DNA of 64,000 nt from Acidobacteriota bacterium (GTDB lineage: Bacteria; Acidobacteriota; UBA6911), in assembly GCA_963664705.1 (NCBI GenBank), contig OY761556.1:736001-800000 (forward strand), given 5' to 3'. The translations under genes and the position numbers were made by a program. Shown in pieces: positions 2,415-21,693 of the stretch. The stretch's first letter is position 1. Each line of letters begins with the position of its first letter. The notes beneath the pieces were generated by a model, which was not told the origin of the DNA, ran no database searches, and saw nothing but the letters and a program-made list of their open reading frames with translations.

Positions 2415-3464
2415 CTAAATGGAGTAATCTTCCAAAAATACCTGCGTTTCCTTCAGACTGACATATACTTCGTGATCGCGTTCCAACGCGAGAGAACGAT
2501 AGCGTTCCTGAGTCATTTCCACTCGCACGGAGTCTCCGGCTCGGGTGATCAATTCCACTTTAACCAGCGGGCCGGCACTATTGATATGCAGAACCTTTGC
2601 GCGCAAATGGTTGCTTCCATCCGGATGATGCGTGATGTCGAGTTGGTGTGGCCGCACATAGAGAACCGCGCTCCTTCCGGTGCCGGGCGCAGATTCGTCT
2701 CCGATATAGGGGATGCCGCCTTCAACCCTGCCATGGAACAGATTGACATTTCCGAGAAAGTTATAGACAAACGAATTTGCCGGGTGCTGGTAAATATCCT
2801 CGGGCGTCCCTGTCTGGGCAATTGTTCCTTTGTTCATAACGACAACGAGATCGGCGACCTCCAGTGCTTCTTCCTGGTCGTGTGTGACAAAGACGCTTGT
2901 AATATGAATTTCATCGTGAAGCCTCCGCAGCCAGCGTCGAAGCTCATACCTCACTTTGGCATCAAGCGATCCGAATGGTTCGTCCAACAATAGGACTTTG
3001 GGTTCAACGGCGAGGGCTCTTGCGAGAGCCACACGCTGCCTTTGTCCTCCGGATAGTTGCGATGGGAGCCGGTTCGCCATTGATCGGAGTTGAACCAGGT
3101 CCAGAAGGTTGTTTACTTTCGTCTGAATCTCGCCGGATGAAGGACGCTCCTTCCGGGGTTTTACCCGGAGGCCGAAAGCGATATTCTCAAAAACGGTCAT
3201 GTGGCGAAACAAGGCATAGTGCTGAAAGACAAAGCCAACTCCGCGTTCACGAGCGTGTCTCAAGGTTGCATCATTTGCATCAAACGAAAGGTTTCCGCTA
3301 TCGGGAAATTCGAGCCCCGCAATAATGCGCAGCAAGGTTGTTTTTCCGGAGCCGGAAGGGCCTAGCAGGGCAACCAATTGGCCGGAGGGGATCGTCAAGC
3401 TGATGTTGCTGAGTGCACTAAAATTGCCAAATGTTTTTGCGATGTTATTCAATTCGATGTTCAT
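2415..3464 (-). CDS. cysA: Sulfate/thiosulfate ABC transporter ATP-binding protein
   Basis: GPSGSGKT Walker [29 protein letters not shown]-terminal TOBE-like region, operon context. Confidence 0.95.
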
Positions 3465-3470
3465 CGAAGC

Positions 3471-4367
3471 CTACTCCGGTGCGATATTTGAGGTGGATGG
3501 CGTGTTGACGTGTCGCCGGCCTTGCCAGTCTATGATCGCTTTGGCCGCAAGGGTGATCAATGCGAGCAGCGCAAGCAGGGATGCCACTGCAAAGGACGCA
3601 ACAAACTGGTAATCGTTATAAAGTACTTCCACATGCAACGGCATTGTATTGGTCAATCCGCGGATATGTCCCGATACAACCGAAACCGCGCCAAACTCGC
3701 CCATCGCGCGCGCATTACATAAAATAATTCCATACAATAGTCCCCACTTCACATTGGGCAGGGTTACCAGCCAGAAGGTCTTCCAACCGCTGGCTCCCAG
3801 GATAAGCGCTGCCTCTTCCGCATCGCTGCCCTGTGCCTGCATGGATGGAATCAACTCGCGGGCGGCATAGGGAAAGGTTACAAATATGGTTGCCAGGATG
3901 ATCCCTGGCACGCTGAAAACAATCTGCAGATTGTGTGCGTCAAGCCATGGGCCCAGAAGCCCCCTGGCCCCAAAGAGAAGAATAAAGAGCATGCCGGAAA
4001 TGACTGGGGAGATGCTGAAAGGCAAGTCAATCAGGGAGAGTATGAAGCTCTTGCCCCGGAAATCAAACTTGGTGATTGCCCAGGAGGCTGCCAGCCCGAA
4101 CAGCACGTTGAGCGGTACGGCAATCAGGGCGGTTATCAAAGTCAGCTTAATGGCCGACCAGGCATCCGGCTCGGATATTGCCTCCCAGTATTTGGCAAAG
4201 CCCGTTTCCAGCGCCTTGGCAAATACGGTGAAGAGCGGAATCACCAGAAACAATCCCAGAAACAGCAATGCGGTCAGCGTCAGAGCCCATCGGATTATTG
4301 GAGATTCCGTGGTGTTCCGTGACTGGATCGTGCCATTCCGGATTTGAGTGGATGGAGCGTTGGCCAA
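3471..4367 (-). CDS. cysW: Sulfate ABC transporter permease CysW
   Basis: DLPFSISPVISG, EEAALILGASGW and NARAMGEFGAVSVVSGHIRG motifs. TTG start after GAGGAG. Confidence 0.93.
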   Translation of the reverse strand: MANAPSTQIRNGTIQSRNTTESPIIRWALTLTALLFLGLFLVIPLFTVFAKALETGFAKYWEAISEPDAWSAIKLTLITALIAVPLNVLFGLAASWAITKFDFRGKSFILSLIDLPFSISPVISGMLFILLFGARGLLGPWLDAHNLQIVFSVPGIILATIFVTFPYAARELIPSMQAQGSDAEEAALILGASGWKTFWLVTLPNVKWGLLYGIILCNARAMGEFGAVSVVSGHIRGLTNTMPLHVEVLYNDYQFVASFAVASLLALLALITLAAKAIIDWQGRRHVNTPSTSNIAPE

Positions 4368-4387
4368 TGGGGATCTCCTCAATGATA

Positions 4388-5215
4388 TTATCTGGAAAGC
4401 CTGGTTCGATATCCCTGGGCAAAGTTGATGGCAAGAAGCAGTGTGAAGGAGGCCAGCAGAAATACCAGGGCGATCGCGCTGGCTTCAGCGTAATTAAACT
4501 GCTCAAGCTTGATCATGATCAGCAGGGGCGTAATCTCGGTGCGCATGGGCATATTGCCCGAGATGAAAATCACCGATCCGTATTCTCCCAGGCCGCGCGC
4601 AAAGGCAAGCACAAAACCGGTAAGTAACGCGGGGGCGAGTTCCGGAAGCAAAACCCGCGTAATCGTCTGAAAACGGGTAGCCCCCAGGCTGACGGCTGCT
4701 TCTTCGACATCAGCGTCCATAGCCTGCAATACCGGCTCAACCGTGCGGACGACAAAGGGGAGCCCAATGAAGACAAGAGCGATGGTGATTCCCAGCGGCG
4801 TATAGGCTGCTTTGATCCCGAATCCATGAAGAATTTTTCCGATCCATCCGGTTTCGGAATAAAGCGTTGTGAGCGCTATGCCGGCGACCGCCGTGGGCAA
4901 GGCAAACGGAAGGTCCACCAGCCCATCAATCAGCTTCTTGCCTGGGAATTTGTAGCGTACCAATACCCAGGCCACAAGCAGCCCGAAAAAGGTGTTCACC
5001 AGGGCTCCTGCAAAGGATGCGCCAAAGCTGAGGCGATAGGAGGCCAATGCGCGAGGAGTCGACACCGTGGCCCAGAATTGCCCCCAGCTCAGGGACATCG
5101 TTTTGATCACGAGAGTCGATAGGGGAATCAGCACAACAATGCCGAGATAGAGCACCGCATAGCCGAGAGATCCGGCAAAACCGGGAATGATGCTCCGTTT
5201 CTTGAGAATGATCAT
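4388..5215 (-). CDS. cysT: Sulfate ABC transporter permease CysT (CysU)
   Basis: DLPFALPTAVAGIAL, EEAAVSLGA and RGLGEYGSVIFISGN motifs. Confidence 0.95.
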   Translation of the reverse strand: MIILKKRSIIPGFAGSLGYAVLYLGIVVLIPLSTLVIKTMSLSWGQFWATVSTPRALASYRLSFGASFAGALVNTFFGLLVAWVLVRYKFPGKKLIDGLVDLPFALPTAVAGIALTTLYSETGWIGKILHGFGIKAAYTPLGITIALVFIGLPFVVRTVEPVLQAMDADVEEAAVSLGATRFQTITRVLLPELAPALLTGFVLAFARGLGEYGSVIFISGNMPMRTEITPLLIMIKLEQFNYAEASAIALVFLLASFTLLLAINFAQGYRTRLSR

Positions 5216-5275
5216 CGATCCTCTTTCTTAAGGAAGCATAAGCGCGTCAACACGATCGGGTTCTCTGTCGCTTGC

Positions 5276-6283
5276 CTAGGGGTGATAGATCCGGTCGAAA
5301 ACGCCACCGTCATCAAAATGCGTTTTCTGGGCTTTTTGCCAACCGCCAAGCTGGTCAATTCCCACGAGCGTTGACTTTTGAAAGATATTCGAATATCTGG
5401 CTGCTATCGTTGCATTCCGCGGACGGTAGTAGTGGCGGGCCGCAATCTCCTGACCTTCCTCGGTGTATAGATATTCGAGATAGGCCTGGGCCGCTGTCAG
5501 AGAGCCTTGCCTTTTAGCATTTTTATCCACCACTGCAACGGGTGGTTCGGCCAGTATCGTGACTGAAGGCATCACGATATCAAAGTTGCCTTTGCCTATT
5601 TCCTTTACGGTTAATAGCGCTTCGTTTTCCCATGCGATCAGGACATCCCCTATGCCTCGCTCGACAAATGTGGTGGTCGCTCCGCGCGCACCGGTATCGA
5701 GAACGGGAACATTTTTGAATATGGATGTAATGAACTCCTGTGCTTTCTTCTCGTCATTGCCCCATCGCTTCAAGGCATAGCTCCAGGCGGCCAGATAGTT
5801 CCATCTGGCTCCTCCGGATGTTTTGGGATTAGGCGTTATTACCGATATCCCCGTCTTTGCCAGGTCATCCCAATCCTTTATTTTTTTGGGGTTTCCTTTC
5901 CGAACCAGGAAGACGATGGTTGAGGTATAGGGAGCGCTGTTGTTCGGCAGCCGCTTTTCCCAGTTGACGTCAAGGAGTCCGGCCTTGGCGATGGCATCTA
6001 CATCGTAGGCAAGCGCCAGCGTGACAACATCTGCGCGAAGTCCATCAATAACGGCTCGTGCCTGTTTCCCGGATCCTCCGTGTGACTGGCGAATCGTTAC
6101 GGCCTGTCCCGTTCGGGCTTTCCAGTGCTTGGTGAAGGCCGCGTTGAAATCCTGGTACAGCTCGCGCGTGGGATCATAGGAAACATTCAGGAGCGTCAGG
6201 TTTCCCTGGGCTAGGGCTGAAGTGAAGGTTGCAACGACAAAAGCAATAAAGATAAGAAACCCGCGGATTCGTATATTCATCAT
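5276..6283 (-). CDS. sbp: Sulfate ABC transporter periplasmic binding protein
   Basis: Signal peptide, then [26 protein letters not shown] and [18 protein letters not shown]. Start moved to the MM after GGGAG. Confidence 0.95.
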
Positions 6284-6348
6284 GCCAAAACTCCCAATAT
6301 GCTTGCGGTGCCTTGTTAGTGGCCCCTGAACGGCTCTTGGACCAGAGT

Positions 6349-8130
6349 TCATATGGCAAACTCTGGTAGAATCTCTTCCTTTCTAAGAGCATTTTCTGCC
6401 TGTCGGGAAGCTTCAACCGGGTCCTCGGTTGAGATATGAAGGTCTTCGCCTTCATCCCGGTGCATCCCGGTGCTTATTCGGATTGCAAGTATTTCCTGCG
6501 GAAGAACGAGTTCCCGCAGTATTCGCAGTTCGTGTCGATCCACCTCTGGCATGGCGGTTATAAAGATCAGGCCACTGTCTGTCATGATCCGGGCCAATTC
6601 CCCCAACCTCCGAATGCTTTCTTCCCTGCGGTCAAACGTGTCGGCCACGTCTGATCCAATCCCTTTGTCCATGCTGGATACGCCAAGGTAGTAGGAGAAA
6701 AAGCCGGCATTGAACAACCGCTTTTCGAGTGCTTTGCCGACTGATTTGACATGCTCTTCTGAAGGGCCGGTCAGAAACACGAATTTGGATTTATGGCCGT
6801 GTCGCGCTTCGCGGGTGTTGAGAGGGATCGAGCCCAGTTCCCAGGCCGCTTCTCTTTCTGCGACATGCTCTGCTACGAGTGGTTGTCCAGAGGAGGCCGC
6901 TTCGAGCACGATGCCTCCACCGGCTATCTCGTAATTGTCGACGATGACGAAGCGTCCGGTTCCCTCATGATTAGTGAAGAGATCGAATGCCAGGGGTTTT
7001 ACTGTCTGGAGGATGCACTCGCCGATATCGTGGCGCTCCAATTCGTTTTTGCCTTTTTCTGCTTTCAAGTCTGCGGCGTTCAGAACGTGATTCACCCTGG
7101 AAAGATATGCCGGCACACGCGCTGCCGCGAGTTTCAGCTTGTATTTCTTGCCGGTGATCATTGGAGTTTTGCCAAGCCAGAATATATGTACGCGCAGGTT
7201 CGATCCGACTATCACTGAAGGCTCGGAATATTTACACATAATTTCGCCGGGCCGGATATACAACTCTTCCGTAAACGTAACTCCGACTGCCTGGCCTGCG
7301 GATGCGCTGAACCCGGGCGGTCGGTTGAACGATTCGATGCTTTTGATCGTGGACTTCTTTTCAGAAGGATAGAAAACCACCGGGGTTCCAACGGAAACGG
7401 ATCCGGTTTCAATTGTGCCTGCCAGGATGCGCCGGTCATCTGCTTCCTCGGTAAATTTGTACACATCCTGCACCGCGAATCGAAATGGCTGTTCTTCTTT
7501 TCCCGCTTCCTTCGTGAATGAATCCAGAAAATCGAGGGCGGTGAGTCCCTTGTACCACTCCGCTTTTTGCGTCAGATTGATGCCTTCCCGGGCGGAGACT
7601 GGCACAAATCCGAATGGATGCAACCCGATCTCTGCAAGGAATGCGGTATATTCCTGCCGGATCCGTTCAAAAACGGTCATATCGAAACCGACAAGATCCA
7701 TCTTGTTTACCAGGACGACAATCTGGCGAATTCCCAGCATCGACAGAAGGTATCCATGCCGGCGGGAGTTTTCGCGTACTCCTTCTTTGGCGTCGATCAC
7801 CAGGAGCGCCGCTTCTGCACGGGCTGCGCCGGTTACCATATTCTTAAGGAACTCGATATGACCGGGCGCGTCGAGAATGATGTAATCGCGTTGCGCGGAT
7901 TTGAAGAAGCATCGGGCGGTATCAATGGTTATGCCTTGTGCCTGTTCGTCTTTGAGTGCGTCCAGAAGGAATGCGTATTCAAAGGGGCGTGCATTCCGCT
8001 CGCACATTGCCTGAACTTGTGCGAGTTTTCCCTGGGGCAGCGATCCTGTATCCGCAAGTAGCCGCCCTATGACCGTGCTTTTGCCGTGATCCACATGACC
8101 AACAACTACTATATTCATCTGTTCGCGCAT
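6349..8130 (-). CDS. cysN: Sulfate adenylyltransferase large subunit with degenerate C-terminal APS-kinase-like domain
   Basis: [19 protein letters not shown] and NKMD GTPase motifs. The CysC-like tail ([33 protein letters not shown]) lacks an intact P-loop. Confidence 0.92.
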
Positions 8131-8153
8131 CCGATTGCTCCAACGATATCGTT

Positions 8154-9035
8154 CTACATGTATCCTTCACGGCGCAGCGTTTCGAGGCCCCCGCCATCTT
8201 CCTTGTCCTGCGCACGCCCCGAGCGTTCCGCGATATTTGCGAATTTCCCGGTTCGCAGCTCCTCGATGATTTCCCTGACCGTACGCGCCTCGGAATCCAC
8301 CGCATGCGTACAGGGATAGCAGCCGAGAGAGCGATAACGCTTCCCGTCCCCCTGGTTGAAATACAGGGAGACAACGCCTATGCCTTCCCGCTCGATGTAC
8401 TCCCAGATATTCAGTTCCGTCCAATCAAGAAGCGGATGCACTCGTACATGAGTTCCCGGGGCAAAATCTGTTTTGAACTGATTCCATAGCTCGGGCGGCT
8501 GGTCTGCGATGTCCCATTCGTTGTCTTTGTCCCGCGAGGAGAAATAGCGCTCTTTCGAGCGACTGCCCTCTTCATCCGCGCGCACGCCGACGATCACTCC
8601 GGTATAGGGTTCCTGATGGAGCTCGCTTACATATTTCCCGGTGGAATGATCCATTCTGTAGCGGGGCCATTCGCCGGAAAGTGTTCGTTTGAGCGCTTCG
8701 CTTTTCAGGTTGCGGCAGCAGGCAATGCGATCGGCATTTCCATCCGGAAAGGTTTCCCGGCACCGGATAGCCTCAGCATTTTCACCGTAGACCATATTCA
8801 GTTTCCATTCTTTGGCCAGGCGATCCCTGTACCGGATCATTTCCGGAATTTTGAAATGTGTGTCTATGTGGACAAGCGGAAATGGTACATGGCCAAAAAA
8901 AGCTCGCCGGGCCAGCCAAAGGAGCACAGTGCTGTCCTTGCCGATCGACCAGAGCATGCAGAGATGTTTGAACTCCCGATAGGCCTCTCTCAGGATATAG
9001 ATGCTTCTTGCTTCCAATTTGTCGAGTGTATCCAT
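8154..9035 (-). CDS. cysD: Sulfate adenylyltransferase small subunit
   Basis: WSIGKDS PP-loop, [31 protein letters not shown], ending LRREGYM. Confidence 0.95.
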
Positions 9036-9046
9036 GGCTGTCCTCT

Positions 9047-9700
9047 TTACTGATCGCTATGTAGTCCGCACTCCATCCCATGCTGAGATGTTCCAGCAAA
9101 TCTCCCTGCGCGTTCGGAATCCCCGCCTTTGGATGTGCAGGGCAGGCATCCAAGCGAGGCATATCCCTGGTTGTACAGCGGGTGATAGCTGAGATTATTC
9201 TGCACGATGTAATTCCAGACATCTTCCTTGGTCCAGAATGCAATGGGATTGATTTTGGTGATCCGGCCTTCTGACAGAATGGGGGTGTCTTTCCTTAGCT
9301 CATTTTCATCGCGCCGCAGACCGGTTATCCAGGCGTCAAATTGAGGGAGAATGAGCGAAAGCGCGGGAGCTTTCATTTCGCAGCATTTATAGCGATCGTT
9401 CCTGATCGTGTGCTCTCCGAACTCGGTTTCTATCCGCTGACGCTCTGCATCCGGCGGCTCAATCCATCGGAAATGCATTCCGGTTTCCGCGACCAGTTGG
9501 TTTGCGTAGGCGAGGGTTTCCGGAAACTCGTAGCCGGTATCGATGCCAATGAACGGGACGTCTTTATTTACCTGCATGACGAGATCCACCAGCACCCGAG
9601 AGTCTTTACCAAATGAGCAGGAGGCAAATACCCTCGAATGTCTGGCAATGGCAACCTCTATGATAAATTTAGATAATTCGACTTTCTCCCAGAGCTTCAT
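9047..9700 (-). CDS. cysH: APS/PAPS reductase, probably the [4Fe-4S] APS reductase type
   Basis: [17 protein letters not shown] pair, [20 protein letters not shown] and terminal ECGLH. ATG at 9700 after AGGAGA. Confidence 0.92.
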
Positions 9701-10526
9701 TGATGTCTCCTGAATGGGTATAGAAAGGGATCGCTGCAAAAAGTTGTTCAGGCGCATTTCCTTCATGCCAGTTTAAGACCGGACTGAGCCGGACCACATT
9801 CCCGACTATCACCAGCATTGGTGTTGCCGGGTTCACATCGGTTACACCGGCGTCGATATCCTCAAGCGTCCCCAATACGGTTTGCTGATCCGGCAGCGTT
9901 GCTCTGCTGATGACCGCAATCGGAGTGTTGGGGGCGAGGCCGCCCGCCATCAGCGAACAGACGATTTCAGCCAGTTGCAGCCCGCCCATGTAAACCACCA
10001 GTGTGTCCACGGATTTGGCAATATCGGATAAGGATCGGTTCTTCGGGGCGGTCCTGAAATCCCTTGGAGTTACAAATGCAATTGAAGAGGAGATCGCGCG
10101 GTGAGTCAGCGGGATGCCCGAATAGCTGGCGGCCCCCAGTGCGGAGGTGACTCCGGGTATGATCTCAAAACGGATCCCGTGTTGCTTGCAGGCAAGAGCT
10201 TCTTCCCCTCCGCGTCCGAACAGAAGAGGATCGCCTCCCTTCAGTCTCACGACCGTCTTGCCCGATTTGGCAGAGGCAATGATCCTTTCATTGATGGCCC
10301 ACTGTTCCATCGCCCGCTTGCCGCAGCGCTTCCCGACAAAGACCCTTTCGGCTCCATGCCCGGCATATTGAAATATTTCCGGGTTGACGAGCGCATCGTA
10401 AAAGATGATGTCCGCCTTGCGAAGGGCCTGCATGCCTTTGATTGTGAGCAGATCGACGGCTCCAGGGCCCGCTCCCACGATAAAAACCTGGGGCATATCC
10501 AATTTGGTGGCAGCCTTTCTATTCAT
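9669..10526 (-). CDS. cobA: Uroporphyrinogen-III C-methyltransferase
   Basis: VGAGPG, DALV, VRLKGGDPLLFGRGGEE, IPGVTS and GIPLTHR motifs. Confidence 0.93.
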   Translation of the reverse strand: MNRKAATKLDMPQVFIVGAGPGAVDLLTIKGMQALRKADIIFYDALVNPEIFQYAGHGAERVFVGKRCGKRAMEQWAINERIIASAKSGKTVVRLKGGDPLLFGRGGEEALACKQHGIRFEIIPGVTSALGAASYSGIPLTHRAISSSIAFVTPRDFRTAPKNRSLSDIAKSVDTLVVYMGGLQLAEIVCSLMAGGLAPNTPIAVISRATLPDQQTVLGTLEDIDAGVTDVNPATPMLVIVGNVVRLSPVLNWHEGNAPEQLFAAIPFYTHSGDINEALGESRII

Positions 10527-11130
10527 CGATCCGAATCCTCCCTGGCTGAGCCTGATCCATCTGATCCAGTACGCGGCGAATAACCGCTTTACGCTCCTGC
10601 ATATCTTCGGGAATGTGGATTTTAAGATGTCTGCGCAACTGACCTAGTTCTATGGCGAATGCATCCAGGGTGGCTGGCAGCACTTCCTCGAGCCGCTCCC
10701 GCAACCATGCCGCGAGGACCGGACTGTTGCCGTCGGTGGAAATGGAGATTTTCAGTGCGCCGCGATCCACAATGGCGGGGAAGAAGAAATCGCTTTGCTC
10801 CGCCTGATCGACAATGTTGCACAGTATGTTCCGGCGATTTGCTTCTTCGAAGATTGTCTGCTGGACTGTTCGGTCATTGGTTGCGCCTATGACGATCGAA
10901 TAGGCGTTGCAAATATCCGAACGCAATAGCGGCCGCTGATGAAGCTGAAGGGAACCCTCAACCGCAAGATCAACGATGGACGGCATGGCCTCACGGGCGA
11001 TTACCGTGACTTTTGCCGAGGCCGACAGCATTTGTGATATACGAGTGAATGCCGTTTTTCCGCCTCCAACGATCAATACATGTCGACCGCTCAATTTCAG
11101 TGAGATTGGGAAGGTTTGACTGGTGGGCAT
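10519..11130 (-). CDS. Precorrin-2 dehydrogenase/sirohydrochlorin ferrochelatase (CysG N-terminal/SirC-like)
   Basis: FPISLKL, VLIVGGG, NIVD, DFFFPAIVDRG and ISTDGNSP motifs. Family similarity begins near MPTSQ (11130). Confidence 0.88.
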   Translation of the reverse strand: MPTSQTFPISLKLSGRHVLIVGGGKTAFTRISQMLSASAKVTVIAREAMPSIVDLAVEGSLQLHQRPLLRSDICNAYSIVIGATNDRTVQQTIFEEANRRNILCNIVDQAEQSDFFFPAIVDRGALKISISTDGNSPVLAAWLRERLEEVLPATLDAFAIELGQLRRHLKIHIPEDMQERKAVIRRVLDQMDQAQPGRIRIDE

Positions 11131-11352
11131 AGGCCTTGTTCCGAACTCCGGTTCATTCGCGATGACGCGCTGAAAAAACTTTAGAATTGAAGGATAGAGC
11201 CTTGGATTGCATGGCGGATATGCGTCATGAATTTTCAGGCCTGCCTCAATCCGGTATATGGAAACATGCAAGATCGTATGCATTTATGTATGCGGACGAT
11301 CTCAAGTAGTGGAAGCAGAAAGGAATGGATGCCGACGGGCTTGTATCGTGGT

Positions 11353-11457
11353 CTAGGACGCTGCGCAAGTCCATGCCGCGAGCCATGCCGTCGGCCGTCT
11401 ACAACAGCATCCGGGGCGGTTAGCGGTCTGGAATGTGCTTCTGCGTAATGAACTCAT
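11353..11457 (-). CDS. Putative leaderless poly-Cys leader peptide (34 aa) of the cys operon
   Basis: MSSLRRSTFQTANRPGCCCRRPTAWLAAWTCAAS*. The ATG is 7 nt after the -10 box and there is no SD. TGC-TGT-TGT lies at 11409-11401. Confidence 0.75.
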   Translation of the reverse strand: MSSLRRSTFQTANRPGCCCRRPTAWLAAWTCAAS

Positions 11458-11464
11458 GGCGCAA

Positions 11465-11493
11465 ATTCTAAAGATGGGAAGTGTGAGTGTCAA
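11465..11493 (-). promoter_or_regulatory. Sigma70 promoter of the cys operon
   Basis: TTGACA (11493-11488), 17 bp, TAGAAT (11470-11465). Confidence 0.8.
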
Positions 11494-11595
11494 TAAAAAT
11501 GTGATAAAAAGGTGCCACAAAGTAGTAGAAGCGAATGGAGGAGTTCATAAAATAAGGAGCCGGGCACTATAAAAGCAAAAACCTATGGTAATAAC

Positions 11596-11624
11596 TTGAC
11601 ACGATATGCTTGGCATTGTACAAA
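11596..11624 (+). promoter_or_regulatory. Candidate sigma70 promoter for sulfite reductase
   Basis: TTGACA (11596-11601), 17 bp, TACAAA. This implies the track start at 11606 is too early. Confidence 0.45.
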
Positions 11625-11674
11625 GCGTCGAATCGGCAACGATGGATCGGCTATTGGGGAAAAGGCAAAGAATT

Positions 11675-13375
11675 ATGGGGAACCCAGACTACGCTTTCCC
11701 GTTGGAACTGAAAACGGATATTGACGAATACGAACGGAATGTCCGGGCGTTTCTTTCGGCGGGAATGGAGCCTGAAATATTCAAGGCAAAAAGAGTGCCA
11801 TATGGCGTTTATGAGCAAAGAAATGACGGGACCTATATGGTTCGCGTCAGGGTTACGGCCGGGCGTCTGACCTGTGAGCAGGTCCGAGTGTTGTCCGATT
11901 TGTGCATGGCCTTTGGCGATGGACGGCTGCACATTACCACGCGGCAAGACATTCAGTTTCATAGCGTGTCTATTGGGGAAACCCCGATTATCATGAGGCG
12001 ACTTCTTGAAGTGGGCCTTACCACCAAAGGGGGGGGCGGGAATACGGTTAGAAATATCACCGCATGTCCCTATGCCGGCATATGCCCCAACGAAAACCTG
12101 GATGTAAACCCACAGGCACATCAACTGACGGATTACCTTATACGGCAGGCCGGCAGCTACACGCTTCCGAGAAAATACAAGATCTCGTTCAGCGGTTGCG
12201 GGGCCGATTGCGGTCTGGCGCAAATAGCGGACCTTGGATTCATCGGCGCAATAAGACATGGAAGGCCGGGTTTCCATGTATTCGCGGGTGGCGGTTTGGG
12301 TGTCAGTTCCAGGATTGGCGCGCCGTTACTGCATTGGGTACCGACGACAGATGTGATCCGGATTGCCGAATCTGTGCGAAGAGTATTTGACCGGCACGGA
12401 GATCGCAGCAACCGAAGTCGTGCCCGGCTGCGTTTTGTTGTGGAGAGGCTCGGAGAATCGCCCTTCCGAGATGCATTTCGCGGCGAATTCGATAAGATAA
12501 TCAGAAACGGTGTTCCTGAGTCCGTTAGCTCGAATCTGCGGCGAGAGCGCGAGGCCATTCAGCCGCAGACTCCGATTCTTGAAAAAGGCTGTGGGATACG
12601 CTACCTGAAGCAGGTTCAGGATGGATACATAACGATTCCGCTCCACATAAAACTGGGGCTTGTTTCCGCAGAAGAGTTTGCGCGGCTTGGCGATCTGGCT
12701 GCGCGCTTTAGCGAAAGCCGGGATATTTACGCCACTCGAGCGCAGGGACTTCAATTGCGATTTGTCAAAGAGGAAAATCTGCCTTTGCTGGCAGGAGAAT
12801 TACTGCAAATGAAGGCCGACTATATTGACCGCGGATCATTGACCCAGCGAATAGTATCCTGCACCGGAGCTGATACCTGCCGATTGGGGCTTTGTCTCTC
12901 GCGAAATGCTTCGCTCGCCTGCGAAGAGCGACTCAAGGAAAGCGGCATTATAGAGAAGGAGCTTAAAGGACTGTCCATCTTCATCAACGGCTGCCCCAAT
13001 GGTTGCGGTCATCAGCCCATCGCGCCTGTCGGCTTTTCGGGATGTGCCCAGCGAGTTGATGGTCGCCTGGTGCCTGCCTATAAAGTAACACTTGGGGGAA
13101 GGTGCGAATTCCAGCGTGCACGGCTTGGCATTGCTATCGGTCAAATACCTGCAAAAGCGATACCTGCTTTTCTATGCGCGCTGGCCGCCGATTTCGGCGA
13201 GAAGGGGGGCGCGGGGGAAGCCTTCTCCAATTATTTCGACCGCATGGGCAAAGCCCATTTTGTGAATATTCTGAATCGACACGCGACCGTGCCGCGTTTT
13301 GAAGATGCGCCGGACTACTACTTTGATTTCGGAGCCGACGAATTGTTTTCGCTTGTCCGGCGAGACAGCAAATAG
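11675..13375 (+). CDS. sir: Siroheme/[4Fe-4S] sulfite (or nitrite) reductase, ferredoxin-dependent type
   Basis: GVYEQR, HITTRQDIQ, VRNITACP, LPRKYKISFSGC, and ligands SCTGADTCRLG and NGCPNGCG. Divergent from the cys/siroheme genes. Confidence 0.88.
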   Translation: MGNPDYAFPLELKTDIDEYERNVRAFLSAGMEPEIFKAKRVPYGVYEQRNDGTYMVRVRVTAGRLTCEQVRVLSDLCMAFGDGRLHITTRQDIQFHSVSIGETPIIMRRLLEVGLTTKGGGGNTVRNITACPYAGICPNENLDVNPQAHQLTDYLIRQAGSYTLPRKYKISFSGCGADCGLAQIADLGFIGAIRHGRPGFHVFAGGGLGVSSRIGAPLLHWVPTTDVIRIAESVRRVFDRHGDRSNRSRARLRFVVERLGESPFRDAFRGEFDKIIRNGVPESVSSNLRREREAIQPQTPILEKGCGIRYLKQVQDGYITIPLHIKLGLVSAEEFARLGDLAARFSESRDIYATRAQGLQLRFVKEENLPLLAGELLQMKADYIDRGSLTQRIVSCTGADTCRLGLCLSRNASLACEERLKESGIIEKELKGLSIFINGCPNGCGHQPIAPVGFSGCAQRVDGRLVPAYKVTLGGRCEFQRARLGIAIGQIPAKAIPAFLCALAADFGEKGGAGEAFSNYFDRMGKAHFVNILNRHATVPRFEDAPDYYFDFGADELFSLVRRDSK

Positions 13376-21367: not shown

Positions 21368-21544
21368 TGAAACGACATATCATAATGTCTGTAATAATTT
21401 GATAAATATAATGATAATATGTAGATAGTCTTATAAGCGGCTGGCATTGTCTGCCAGGAAAGGGAGGGGAAGAAGAAGCGTTGGCTGCGTGAGTTCCGCG
21501 GCATTTTCATTGCCCTTCGGGCAATTTGGTGTATATTTGGTGCT

Positions 21545-21666
21545 GTGTTCTTCGGGGCGAGGTGGAATTCCTCGACCGGCGGTGACAGCCCGCGAGCTTT
21601 GGTTAACGAAGCAGAACCTGTGCAATTCAGGTGCCGACGGCAACAGTCCGGATGGTAGAAGGATCG
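21545..21666 (+). ncRNA. FMN riboswitch (RFN element)
   Basis: TTCGGGGCGAGGTGGAATTCCTCGACCGGCGGTGACAGCCCGCGAGC...GCCGACGG..AGTCCGGATGGTAGAAG. P1 is GTTCTTC/GAAGGAT. Lies upstream of ribBA. Confidence 0.95.
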
Positions 21667-21693
21667 ACGACTTAATAGGATAGTCCCTCCATC

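Follow-up and report, generated by a model that had tools for sequence, protein, structure and literature searches.

Gene organization and the leader region

The DNA under study, hereafter referred to as the window, is a 64,000-nucleotide stretch of an Acidobacteriota genome, and its relevant features are listed in Table 1. A sulfate operon runs along the minus strand and begins with a gene for the N-terminal domain of siroheme synthase. The match to this domain starts at residue 7 of the open reading frame that opens at position 11130, which is most likely the start of the gene; an alternative in-frame ATG at 11283 has no Shine-Dalgarno (SD) sequence. The distance from the stop codon of the upstream short open reading frame (sORF) is 223 nt, in keeping with the ∼220 nt estimated in the first-pass annotation. 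The divergent nitrite/sulfite reductase gene has its own probable promoter, TTGACA-17-TACAAA (window 11596-11624, plus strand), and the TACAAA variant of the -10 hexamer is also present in promoters of the leader family described below. No Cys sORF was seen ahead of the divergent reductase gene in this genome. Further along the window, at 21544-21667 of the plus strand, lies an FMN riboswitch (Rfam RF00050, 98.9 bits).

Table 1 Window positions of the sulfate operon, its leader and the divergent gene
Feature	Position	Strand	Basis
Siroheme synthase N-terminal domain (precorrin-2 dehydrogenase/chelatase), first controlled gene	10519-11130	-	domain match
cobA, cysH-like reductase, cysD, cysNC, sulfate-binding protein, two ABC permeases (cysT/cysW-like), cysA	2415-10526	-	
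Nitrite/sulfite reductase (sir-like), divergent	11606-13375	+	domain match
-35 hexamer TTGACA	11488-11493	-	sequence; promoter scan
-10 hexamer TAGAAT	11465-11470	-	sequence; promoter scan
Predicted leaderless sORF, 34 codons, SD absent, Pfam match absent	11353-11457	-	translation
GGATGC, alternative partner of arm end and tail	11407-11412	-	6 bp in this copy
Cys run TGC TGT TGT (putative sensor)	11401-11409	-	sequence; codon usage
Spacer, 5 nt, last Cys codon to helix	11396-11400	-	alignment
P1 5' arm GCCGACGG	11388-11395	-	pairing, alignment
65-nt hairpin (P1 plus variable inner helices), contains the stop codon	11331-11395	-	-29.6 kcal/mol, z -2.4
P1 3' arm CCGTCGGC; 3-bp mini-hairpin possible if P1 is blocked	11331-11338	-	folding
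C/U-rich, G-poor tail, no U-tract; candidate rut or anti-SD	11304-11330	-	base counts
Untranslated spacer to first enzyme gene; candidate Rho release zone	11131-11303	-	sequence

The first-pass annotation had described a promoter, an ATG without an SD sequence and three consecutive Cys codons on the minus strand, all of which were found where it had placed them. The hexamers TTGACA-17 nt-TAGAAT (11/12) are followed after 7 nt by the ATG at 11457, and we infer that transcription starts at, or adjoining, the A of this codon. The sORF, 105 nt in length and including the three Cys codons, is translated as MSSLRRSTFQTANRPGCCCRRPTAWLAAWTCAAS and ends with a stop at 11353. In a scan of positions 10500-12500 this was the only promoter-like site, and a single match does not exceed the level of shuffled sequence (shuffle mean 2.0). 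No Rfam 15 family matched the leader region at gathering score (best E 4.3), and no intrinsic terminator-like site was called on the minus strand at the leader. The 65-nt hairpin, with a G-rich 5' strand and a C-rich 3' strand, folds better than its shuffles (z -2.4), whereas the whole 179-nt leader does not (z -0.39). With a promoter match not above shuffles and ordinary folding of the whole leader, the case for this feature rests on comparison.

Within the genome, a Cys-Cys-Cys reading occurs in 119 of 64,819 ATG-initiated frames of 20-50 amino acids (0.18%). A TTGACW-type promoter with an adjacent ATG precedes 11 short frames; three of these carry a Cys run, all three lie upstream of sulfur genes, and the other eight have no such run. 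An exact pattern search of the 6.9 Mb returned three copies of the leader, and the reversed-pattern control returned none. The two further copies, recovered by BLAST and by the promoter-plus-sORF scan, are at C1:3199600, upstream of cysK-cysE and a cystathionine-lyase-family gene, and at C1:5000251, upstream of an OAH/OAS sulfhydrylase gene. A fourth Cys-Cys-Cys sORF behind a loose promoter (C1:1842340) was excluded in that it has no helix and is followed by an unrelated gene.

The leader family

The search for conserved Cys-run sORFs in relatives, proposed as a check in the first-pass annotation, yielded 19 distinct leaders with two or three Cys codons each after ten duplicate loci had been dropped (L296, L301, L303, L306, L309, L310, L317, L324, L326, and L327). 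All precede sulfur or Fe-S genes: 15 are upstream of cysK, one of the sulfate operon, one of the OAH/OAS sulfhydrylase gene, and two of Fe-S/Mo enzyme loci. Ten of the leaders were found with a pattern that fixes the codons, the spacer and the 5' arm, seven without these constraints, and two with a covariance model, R1, trained on 17 leaders. The metagenome pattern scan gave 24 matches, of which 17 are members (16 with cysK downstream and one incomplete) and seven are unrelated. All ten distinct metagenome leaders precede cysK, and the search pattern is blind to the downstream gene. Non-members accounted for 7/24 metagenome matches and 5/8 genome matches to the strict pattern.

The two members that R1 added beyond its training set, from genomes G013 and G009, both keep the promoter, the frame, the Cys run and the helix. 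That of G013 precedes a DUF2325 gene and a molybdopterin oxidoreductase pair (best match PhsA, below cut-off), and that of G009 precedes a 4Fe-4S ferredoxin gene; DUF2325 and the small ferredoxin are thus likely to be linked to cysteine or sulfur. Of 15 R1 matches inspected, one was a member (G013) and the other 14 lay in coding sequence or were without the layout.

Strong matches were confined to six of 137 genomes of the class, all within one bacterial family. When R1 was run on a sample of 150 genomes of the phylum, no match was strong (best E 0.03), and the other cysD-operon loci, from 71 sources, likewise gave none. The exact pattern matched once in the class outside the bacterial family (G039:C2), and R1 is silent there. 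A loose pattern scan of the genome contigs gave a Cys-Cys-Cys reading in 6 of the 120 matches listed, with no member among these, and a pattern that included the tail recovered only one leader, already known. Even within the bacterial family, the leader was present at 5 of the 30 cysK loci screened and absent at 25. Among four genus relatives with a cysD-type operon, it lies upstream only in G009; in G007 an Rrf2 gene occupies its place. In G029 the sir gene is located inside an operon, and the G017 locus has no such leader. By these searches the family is narrow and lineage-restricted, and its members are close kin, such that the counts given here are not independent.

Conserved features

A TTGAC[AT] motif is found 35-40 nt ahead of an in-frame ATG in 17 of the 19 leaders; of the other two, one contig ends early and one has no motif. 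At this distance the mRNAs are predicted to be leaderless or nearly so. The Cys run is preceded by 13-16 codons of variable sequence, always in frame. Counted from the beginning of the run, the stop codon falls at +27, +45, +48, +57, +66 or +99, whereas the position of the helix is constant, which argues that the geometry of the RNA, and not the peptide, is what matters. Every member closes its Cys run with TGT TGT, and ten of the members were found by a pattern that fixes these codons. Genome-wide, TGC accounts for 70% of Cys codons in genes, and the sole tRNA-Cys has the anticodon GCA. The spacer between the Cys run and helix P1 is 5 nt in all 19 leaders, including the seven found with no constraint upon it.

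The first-pass annotation had drawn two helices that share the downstream arm. One of them, GCCGACGG with CCGTCGGC, is the conserved helix P1. In the alignment, 98.5% of the P1 cells are paired as compared to 12-44% in slid controls, with A-U/G-U/G-C and C-G/U-G/U-A exchanges, but four pairs are invariant and the support from column shuffles is modest (9/500). The helix can be extended by one pair toward the Cys run in three members. Together with its inner helices it forms a hairpin of 62-68 nt (43 nt in one leader) with z scores from -1.6 to -6.0. The second proposed helix, in which GGATGC (11412-11407) is complementary to GCATCC (11332-11327) on the minus strand, is not the conserved one: all 6 bp form in this copy only, and a 3-bp UGC:GCA core is present in most relatives. 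The GGATGC helix and the mini-hairpin of the 3' arm both score better than column shuffles (2/500 and 3/500, respectively) but not better than a control slid by +3.

The C/U-rich, G-poor tail with no U-tract terminator, likewise noted at first pass, is indeed present. The 20 nt after the 3' arm hold 8 C, 1 G and 9 U, with three U in the first 9 nt, and a C-over-G skew comparable to that of this copy is seen in 1.4% of windows across the genome. In each of the 19 leaders the 3' strand and tail together hold more C than G (364 C versus 198 G), and there are one to four U in the first 9 nt past the helix, with a U-tract in none. The C-rich tail is missing in two members (G034 and L308). From the end of the arm to the ATG of the first gene the distance is 200 nt here and 60-200 nt across the family, and in this copy strong hairpins sit within the spacer.

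Proposed mechanism

The same layout recurs 19 times ahead of sulfur and Fe-S genes, in support of the original proposal of a leaderless poly-Cys uORF, and the leader is very probably a ribosome-mediated attenuator that senses Cys-tRNA. In such a scheme transcription would begin at the ATG, and a ribosome would load in the absence of an SD sequence. By analogy with established attenuation, scarcity of Cys-tRNA would stall the ribosome on TGC-TGT-TGT. The geometry suggests that the stall permits the helix to form and does not block it. With the last Cys codon in the A site, the helix begins 11 nt from the P-site codon's first base, and the mRNA channel holds 11 nt counted from that codon (PMC7282821). 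P1 would thus lie just outside the channel and could form facing the stalled ribosome. When 14 nt from the start of the run were masked in folding calculations, P1 had a probability above 0.5 in 18 of 19 leaders. P1 is therefore modeled as the likely ON-state structure, antiterminator-like and melted by read-through. The footprint of a ribosome in a toeprint extends to about +16. A footprint of this size would overlap the first bases of the arm, which counts against the formation of P1 during the stall.

What follows the read-through is less certain. Tentatively, and with slightly more doubt than belief, we favor a hairpin that forms only during the stall and hides the C-rich strand, with Rho providing the output once the ribosome has read through. 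During the stall, P1 would bury the C-rich 3' strand and leave the short tail beside the ribosome, and RNA polymerase would proceed into the operon (ON). With ample cysteine, the ribosome would cross the G-rich 5' strand ahead of synthesis of the 3' strand, reaching a stop 27-66 nt past the start of the run and leaving C-rich RNA open (OFF), upon which Rho could load and terminate transcription within the 60-200-nt spacer. In three of the 19 leaders, those with the shortest sORFs, the frame ends just beyond the 5' arm, as would follow if a ribosome that reaches the stop has to cover the arm.

Such control of rut masking by a uORF is established for mgtA and corA (PMC12360218), and its prerequisites are found here: Rho genes, no intrinsic terminator, and a C-rich, G-poor stretch past the uORF. 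Two full-length rho genes score above the TIGR00767 cut-off (G000:C1:643143-644378 and 3893937-3895178) in a genome with an estimated contamination of 6%. Other poly-Cys leaders of these same genomes have hairpin-plus-U terminators, and thus the absence of a U-tract is not a habit of the lineage. In the modeled ON state the 3' strand is buried in P1 and the tail is largely unpaired; an open tail in this state counts against gating of Rho. The free C residues rise on average from 7.0 (ON) to 7.8 (OFF), with an increase in 12 of the 19 leaders, a comparison confounded by the mask at the stop. The two tail-less members and the strong hairpins in the spacer of this copy likewise count against it. 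In L308 (1183-1290, minus strand), the 3' arm forms an 8-bp hairpin followed by an A/U-rich run 60 nt from cysK, which is possibly a terminator-like output.

An extension of the Rho reading, which is unlikely, would have the hairpin slow the entry of Cys-tRNA at the last UGU, in the manner of frameshift-stimulating stems, and fold the tail against the stalled ribosome, such that the geometry of the entrance channel gates Rho. Stems placed 11-12 nt from the P-site codon slow the binding of tRNA to the A site (PMC7282821), and stem length matters, with 11-12 bp favored (PMC8861025). By this account three codons would suffice as a sensor in that the hairpin delays Cys-tRNA, and the leader would be one mobile RNA module, copied to build a cysteine regulon in this Acidobacteriota family. 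The pausing stem-loops of dnaX and HIV on which the analogy draws are 11-12 bp stems that are sensitive to length (PMC7282821, PMC8861025), whereas the hairpin here spans 62-68 nt (43 nt in one leader), contains internal loops, and has no evident slippery sequence.

A Cys sensor could also act on translation, the tail serving as an anti-SD for the first gene, whose SD it would pair with after the ribosome leaves, and polarity silencing the rest of the operon, in the way of mycobacterial Ms5788A. We regard this as doubtful, though by no means negligible. The tail consensus, ACCTCTC/ACCTCCT, resembles the 3' end of the 16S rRNA of this genome. Duplexes of 5-6 bp between a tail and its cognate SD can be drawn in about 8 of 15 cysK members, including a C-G/U-A exchange between G002 (CCCTCC:GGAGGG) and L297 (CTCTCC:GGAGAG), and in the OFF model opening of the ribosome-binding site costs more for 8 of 19 leaders and less for two. 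Cognate pairs, however, do not reliably surpass non-cognate ones by permutation (p 0.63; p 0.18 and 0.09 in tighter windows), and the tails pair equally well with the SDs of cysK genes that lack a leader (-6.8 versus -6.5). The pairing is also present in both modeled states, must reach an SD 60-200 nt away across an unconserved spacer, and is weak in this copy (-4.2).

The polarity might instead be reversed, with P1 blocked by the stall (ON) and a hairpin arising upon read-through as the OFF signal, be it a U-less terminator, a pause hairpin for handover to Rho, or a substrate of the RNase III type. In its favor, P1 is part of the ribosome-free fold in 13 of 17 leaders (P at least 0.49), and masking the 15 nt that follow the last A-site codon abolishes it. 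GGATGC in this copy would allow the pairing to continue over the Cys codons, and Ms5788A is OFF when its sORF RNA is paired (10.1101/834739). The Cys codons nevertheless lie outside of the conserved helix at a distance that the mRNA channel permits, and masking P1 frees no conserved antiterminator partner and makes the ribosome-binding site easier to open in six leaders and harder in six of 17. There is, moreover, no U-tract, even though these genomes place U-tract terminators behind other Cys leaders. On this evidence a reversed polarity is quite unlikely.

It is highly improbable that the sORF is something other than a sensor of Cys-tRNA, such as a metal- or redox-binding peptide or a frame that happens to accompany an RNA element or a promoter under Rrf2 control: the three Rrf2-family genes of the genome (one of them beside the third leader copy), the palindrome upstream of leaders A and B and the cysK loci without a leader (25/30 in the bacterial family) could be cited in its favor, but the peptide varies freely in sequence and length around a fixed in-frame Cys run, Pfam and Rfam matches are absent, the wobble-read TGT is preferred here as in unrelated terminator-type leaders, and the leaders precede sulfur and Fe-S genes. 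The variability of the peptide led us to reject a functional role for it.

Comparison with known systems

The leader resembles the polycysteine leaderless sORFs of the mycobacterial "Cys ribulon" (Ms5788A and Rv2334A; Canestrari et al., 10.1101/834739), with which it shares the consecutive Cys codons, targets in the cysteine pathway, several loci per genome, and a layout in which an intrinsic terminator is not needed. The mycobacterial type has an sORF shorter than 150 nt in which two or more Cys codons follow one another (here 105 nt and three) and a transcript that begins at the AUG, which is predicted here from promoter spacing in 17 of 19 leaders. In Ms5788A the sORF RNA pairs with the downstream SD, and a stall breaks this pairing (10.1101/834739). 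In the Acidobacteriota leader, by contrast, the sORF pairs inside the leader hairpin, and release of the SD is inconsistent (easier in six, harder in six of 17); the Cys run lies in the middle of the frame and is followed after 5 nt by a 65-nt hairpin, whose end is still 60-200 nt away from the SD. It also belongs to another phylum, and one and the same RNA element is present in homologous copies at its three loci.

Actinobacterial cys/cbs leader peptides (Seliverstov et al. 2005, PMC1262725) likewise have a Cys run and a pyrimidine-rich tract with no terminator hairpin. Attenuation by Rho was proposed for them in 2005 on weak grounds, the authors themselves rating the prediction as weak (PMC1262725). 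Their Cys codons lie near the stop, and in the accessible part of that paper no conserved hairpin was found, whereas the Acidobacteriota leader has a conserved hairpin in fixed register to the Cys run. The view that no such attenuator had been described in a non-actinobacterial diderm was too strong, given that a Cys-codon uORF, uORFC-8-2, was predicted earlier as an attenuator before cysS in Rhodobacterales (Brewer et al. 2021, PMC8632094). It differs in that two Cys codons, mostly UGC, lie inside the first stem, an intrinsic terminator with a U-tract follows, and the target is cysS.

In mgtL/mgtA, corL/corA, tnaC and speFL, translation of a uORF decides the masking of a C-rich rut, as is proposed here (PMC12360218). 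The signals in those systems are Mg2+, tryptophan or ornithine, whereas here the signal would be cysteine and dependence on Rho is only proposed; the main text of that review of uORF-Rho attenuators, in its accessible part, contains no mention of a cysteine case (PMC12360218). With the classical trp and his attenuators the leader shares a run of cognate codons and a helix permitted by the stall and melted by read-through, the run being held in fixed register to the switchable helix (5 nt in 19/19). It departs from them in having no terminator hairpin with a U-tract and no SD before the leader peptide.

No Cys leader from Acidobacteriota was met in the literature searched, most subscription papers lying outside of it. 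The Lyubetsky group has reportedly published on Cys leaders, and this work may bear on novelty. Almost none of the attenuators predicted in Acidobacteriota have an assigned function according to the available text of PMC2965389, and the Cys-leader cases in the accessible part of PMC13236596 are mycobacterial only. Within the literature found, cysteine attenuation has been demonstrated experimentally in mycobacteria only. As judged from comparative sequence analysis, the leader is a real feature and a new lineage-restricted, terminator-less variant of poly-Cys ribosome-mediated attenuation. In this family the leader is conserved, can be aligned and has no terminator, and its codon-to-helix register is fixed; this leader, together with natural variants (short stops, no tail, a longer mini-hairpin), makes the question of Rho directly testable. 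The three copies would constitute a ribosome-sensed cysteine regulon of three operons in one Acidobacteriota genome, and leaderless translation in Acidobacteriota is probable.

Other regulators and Cys leaders

That there is no CymR gene, as was stated at first pass, holds for the window but not for the genome, which has three Rrf2-family genes. One of them (G000:C1:5000423-5000824, minus strand; best match CymR, below cut-off) is the immediate upstream neighbor of the third leader, such that control of initiation may be layered on attenuation. A tRNA-Cys gene (5002532-5002608) and a DUF2325 gene are also found near this leader. An imperfect palindrome, C[CT]AC-WWW-GT[AG]G, is located ∼25-35 nt upstream of the -35 hexamer in leaders A and B, with sites at window 11515-11525, at G000:C1:3199531 and 5444173, in L309/L313, and in L031 at ∼4380-4396, between the promoters of G009. 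The pattern has 34 matches on the plus strand of the genome and is a candidate regulator site. It is also present before a locus with hdrC/hdrB-like genes. Some of the control may come from the Rrf2-family regulator and from the shared palindrome.

Behind the third leader (L284:3760-4030, minus strand; G000:C1 ∼4999760-5000030) lies a second poly-Cys sORF, whose translation begins MQKAIFQITLTCCCLSH and which has a hairpin-plus-U-tract terminator, and the OAH/OAS sulfhydrylase gene is thus predicted to be preceded by two tandem Cys attenuators of different type. The sulfite reductase gene of G009 (L031:4165-4410, minus strand) has its own leaderless sORF with runs of four and three Cys codons and an intrinsic terminator that resembles that of the second sORF before the OAH/OAS sulfhydrylase gene; in G009, back-to-back promoters each drive a Cys leader. 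Unrelated poly-Cys sORFs were seen in other Acidobacteriota at L038:13060-13380 (minus strand), L044:285 and 11249, L052:200-700, L057:3300-3660 and L068:3424 (all plus strand), where they precede genes for sulfite reductase, a sulfate-binding protein and other products. A U-tract terminator closes those of L038, L052 and L057. Across Acidobacteriota, attenuation by cysteine may be widespread. Finally, ARAGORN called three tRNA-SeC (TCA) genes in the genome (G000:C1:1625651, 3078215, and 6559014).
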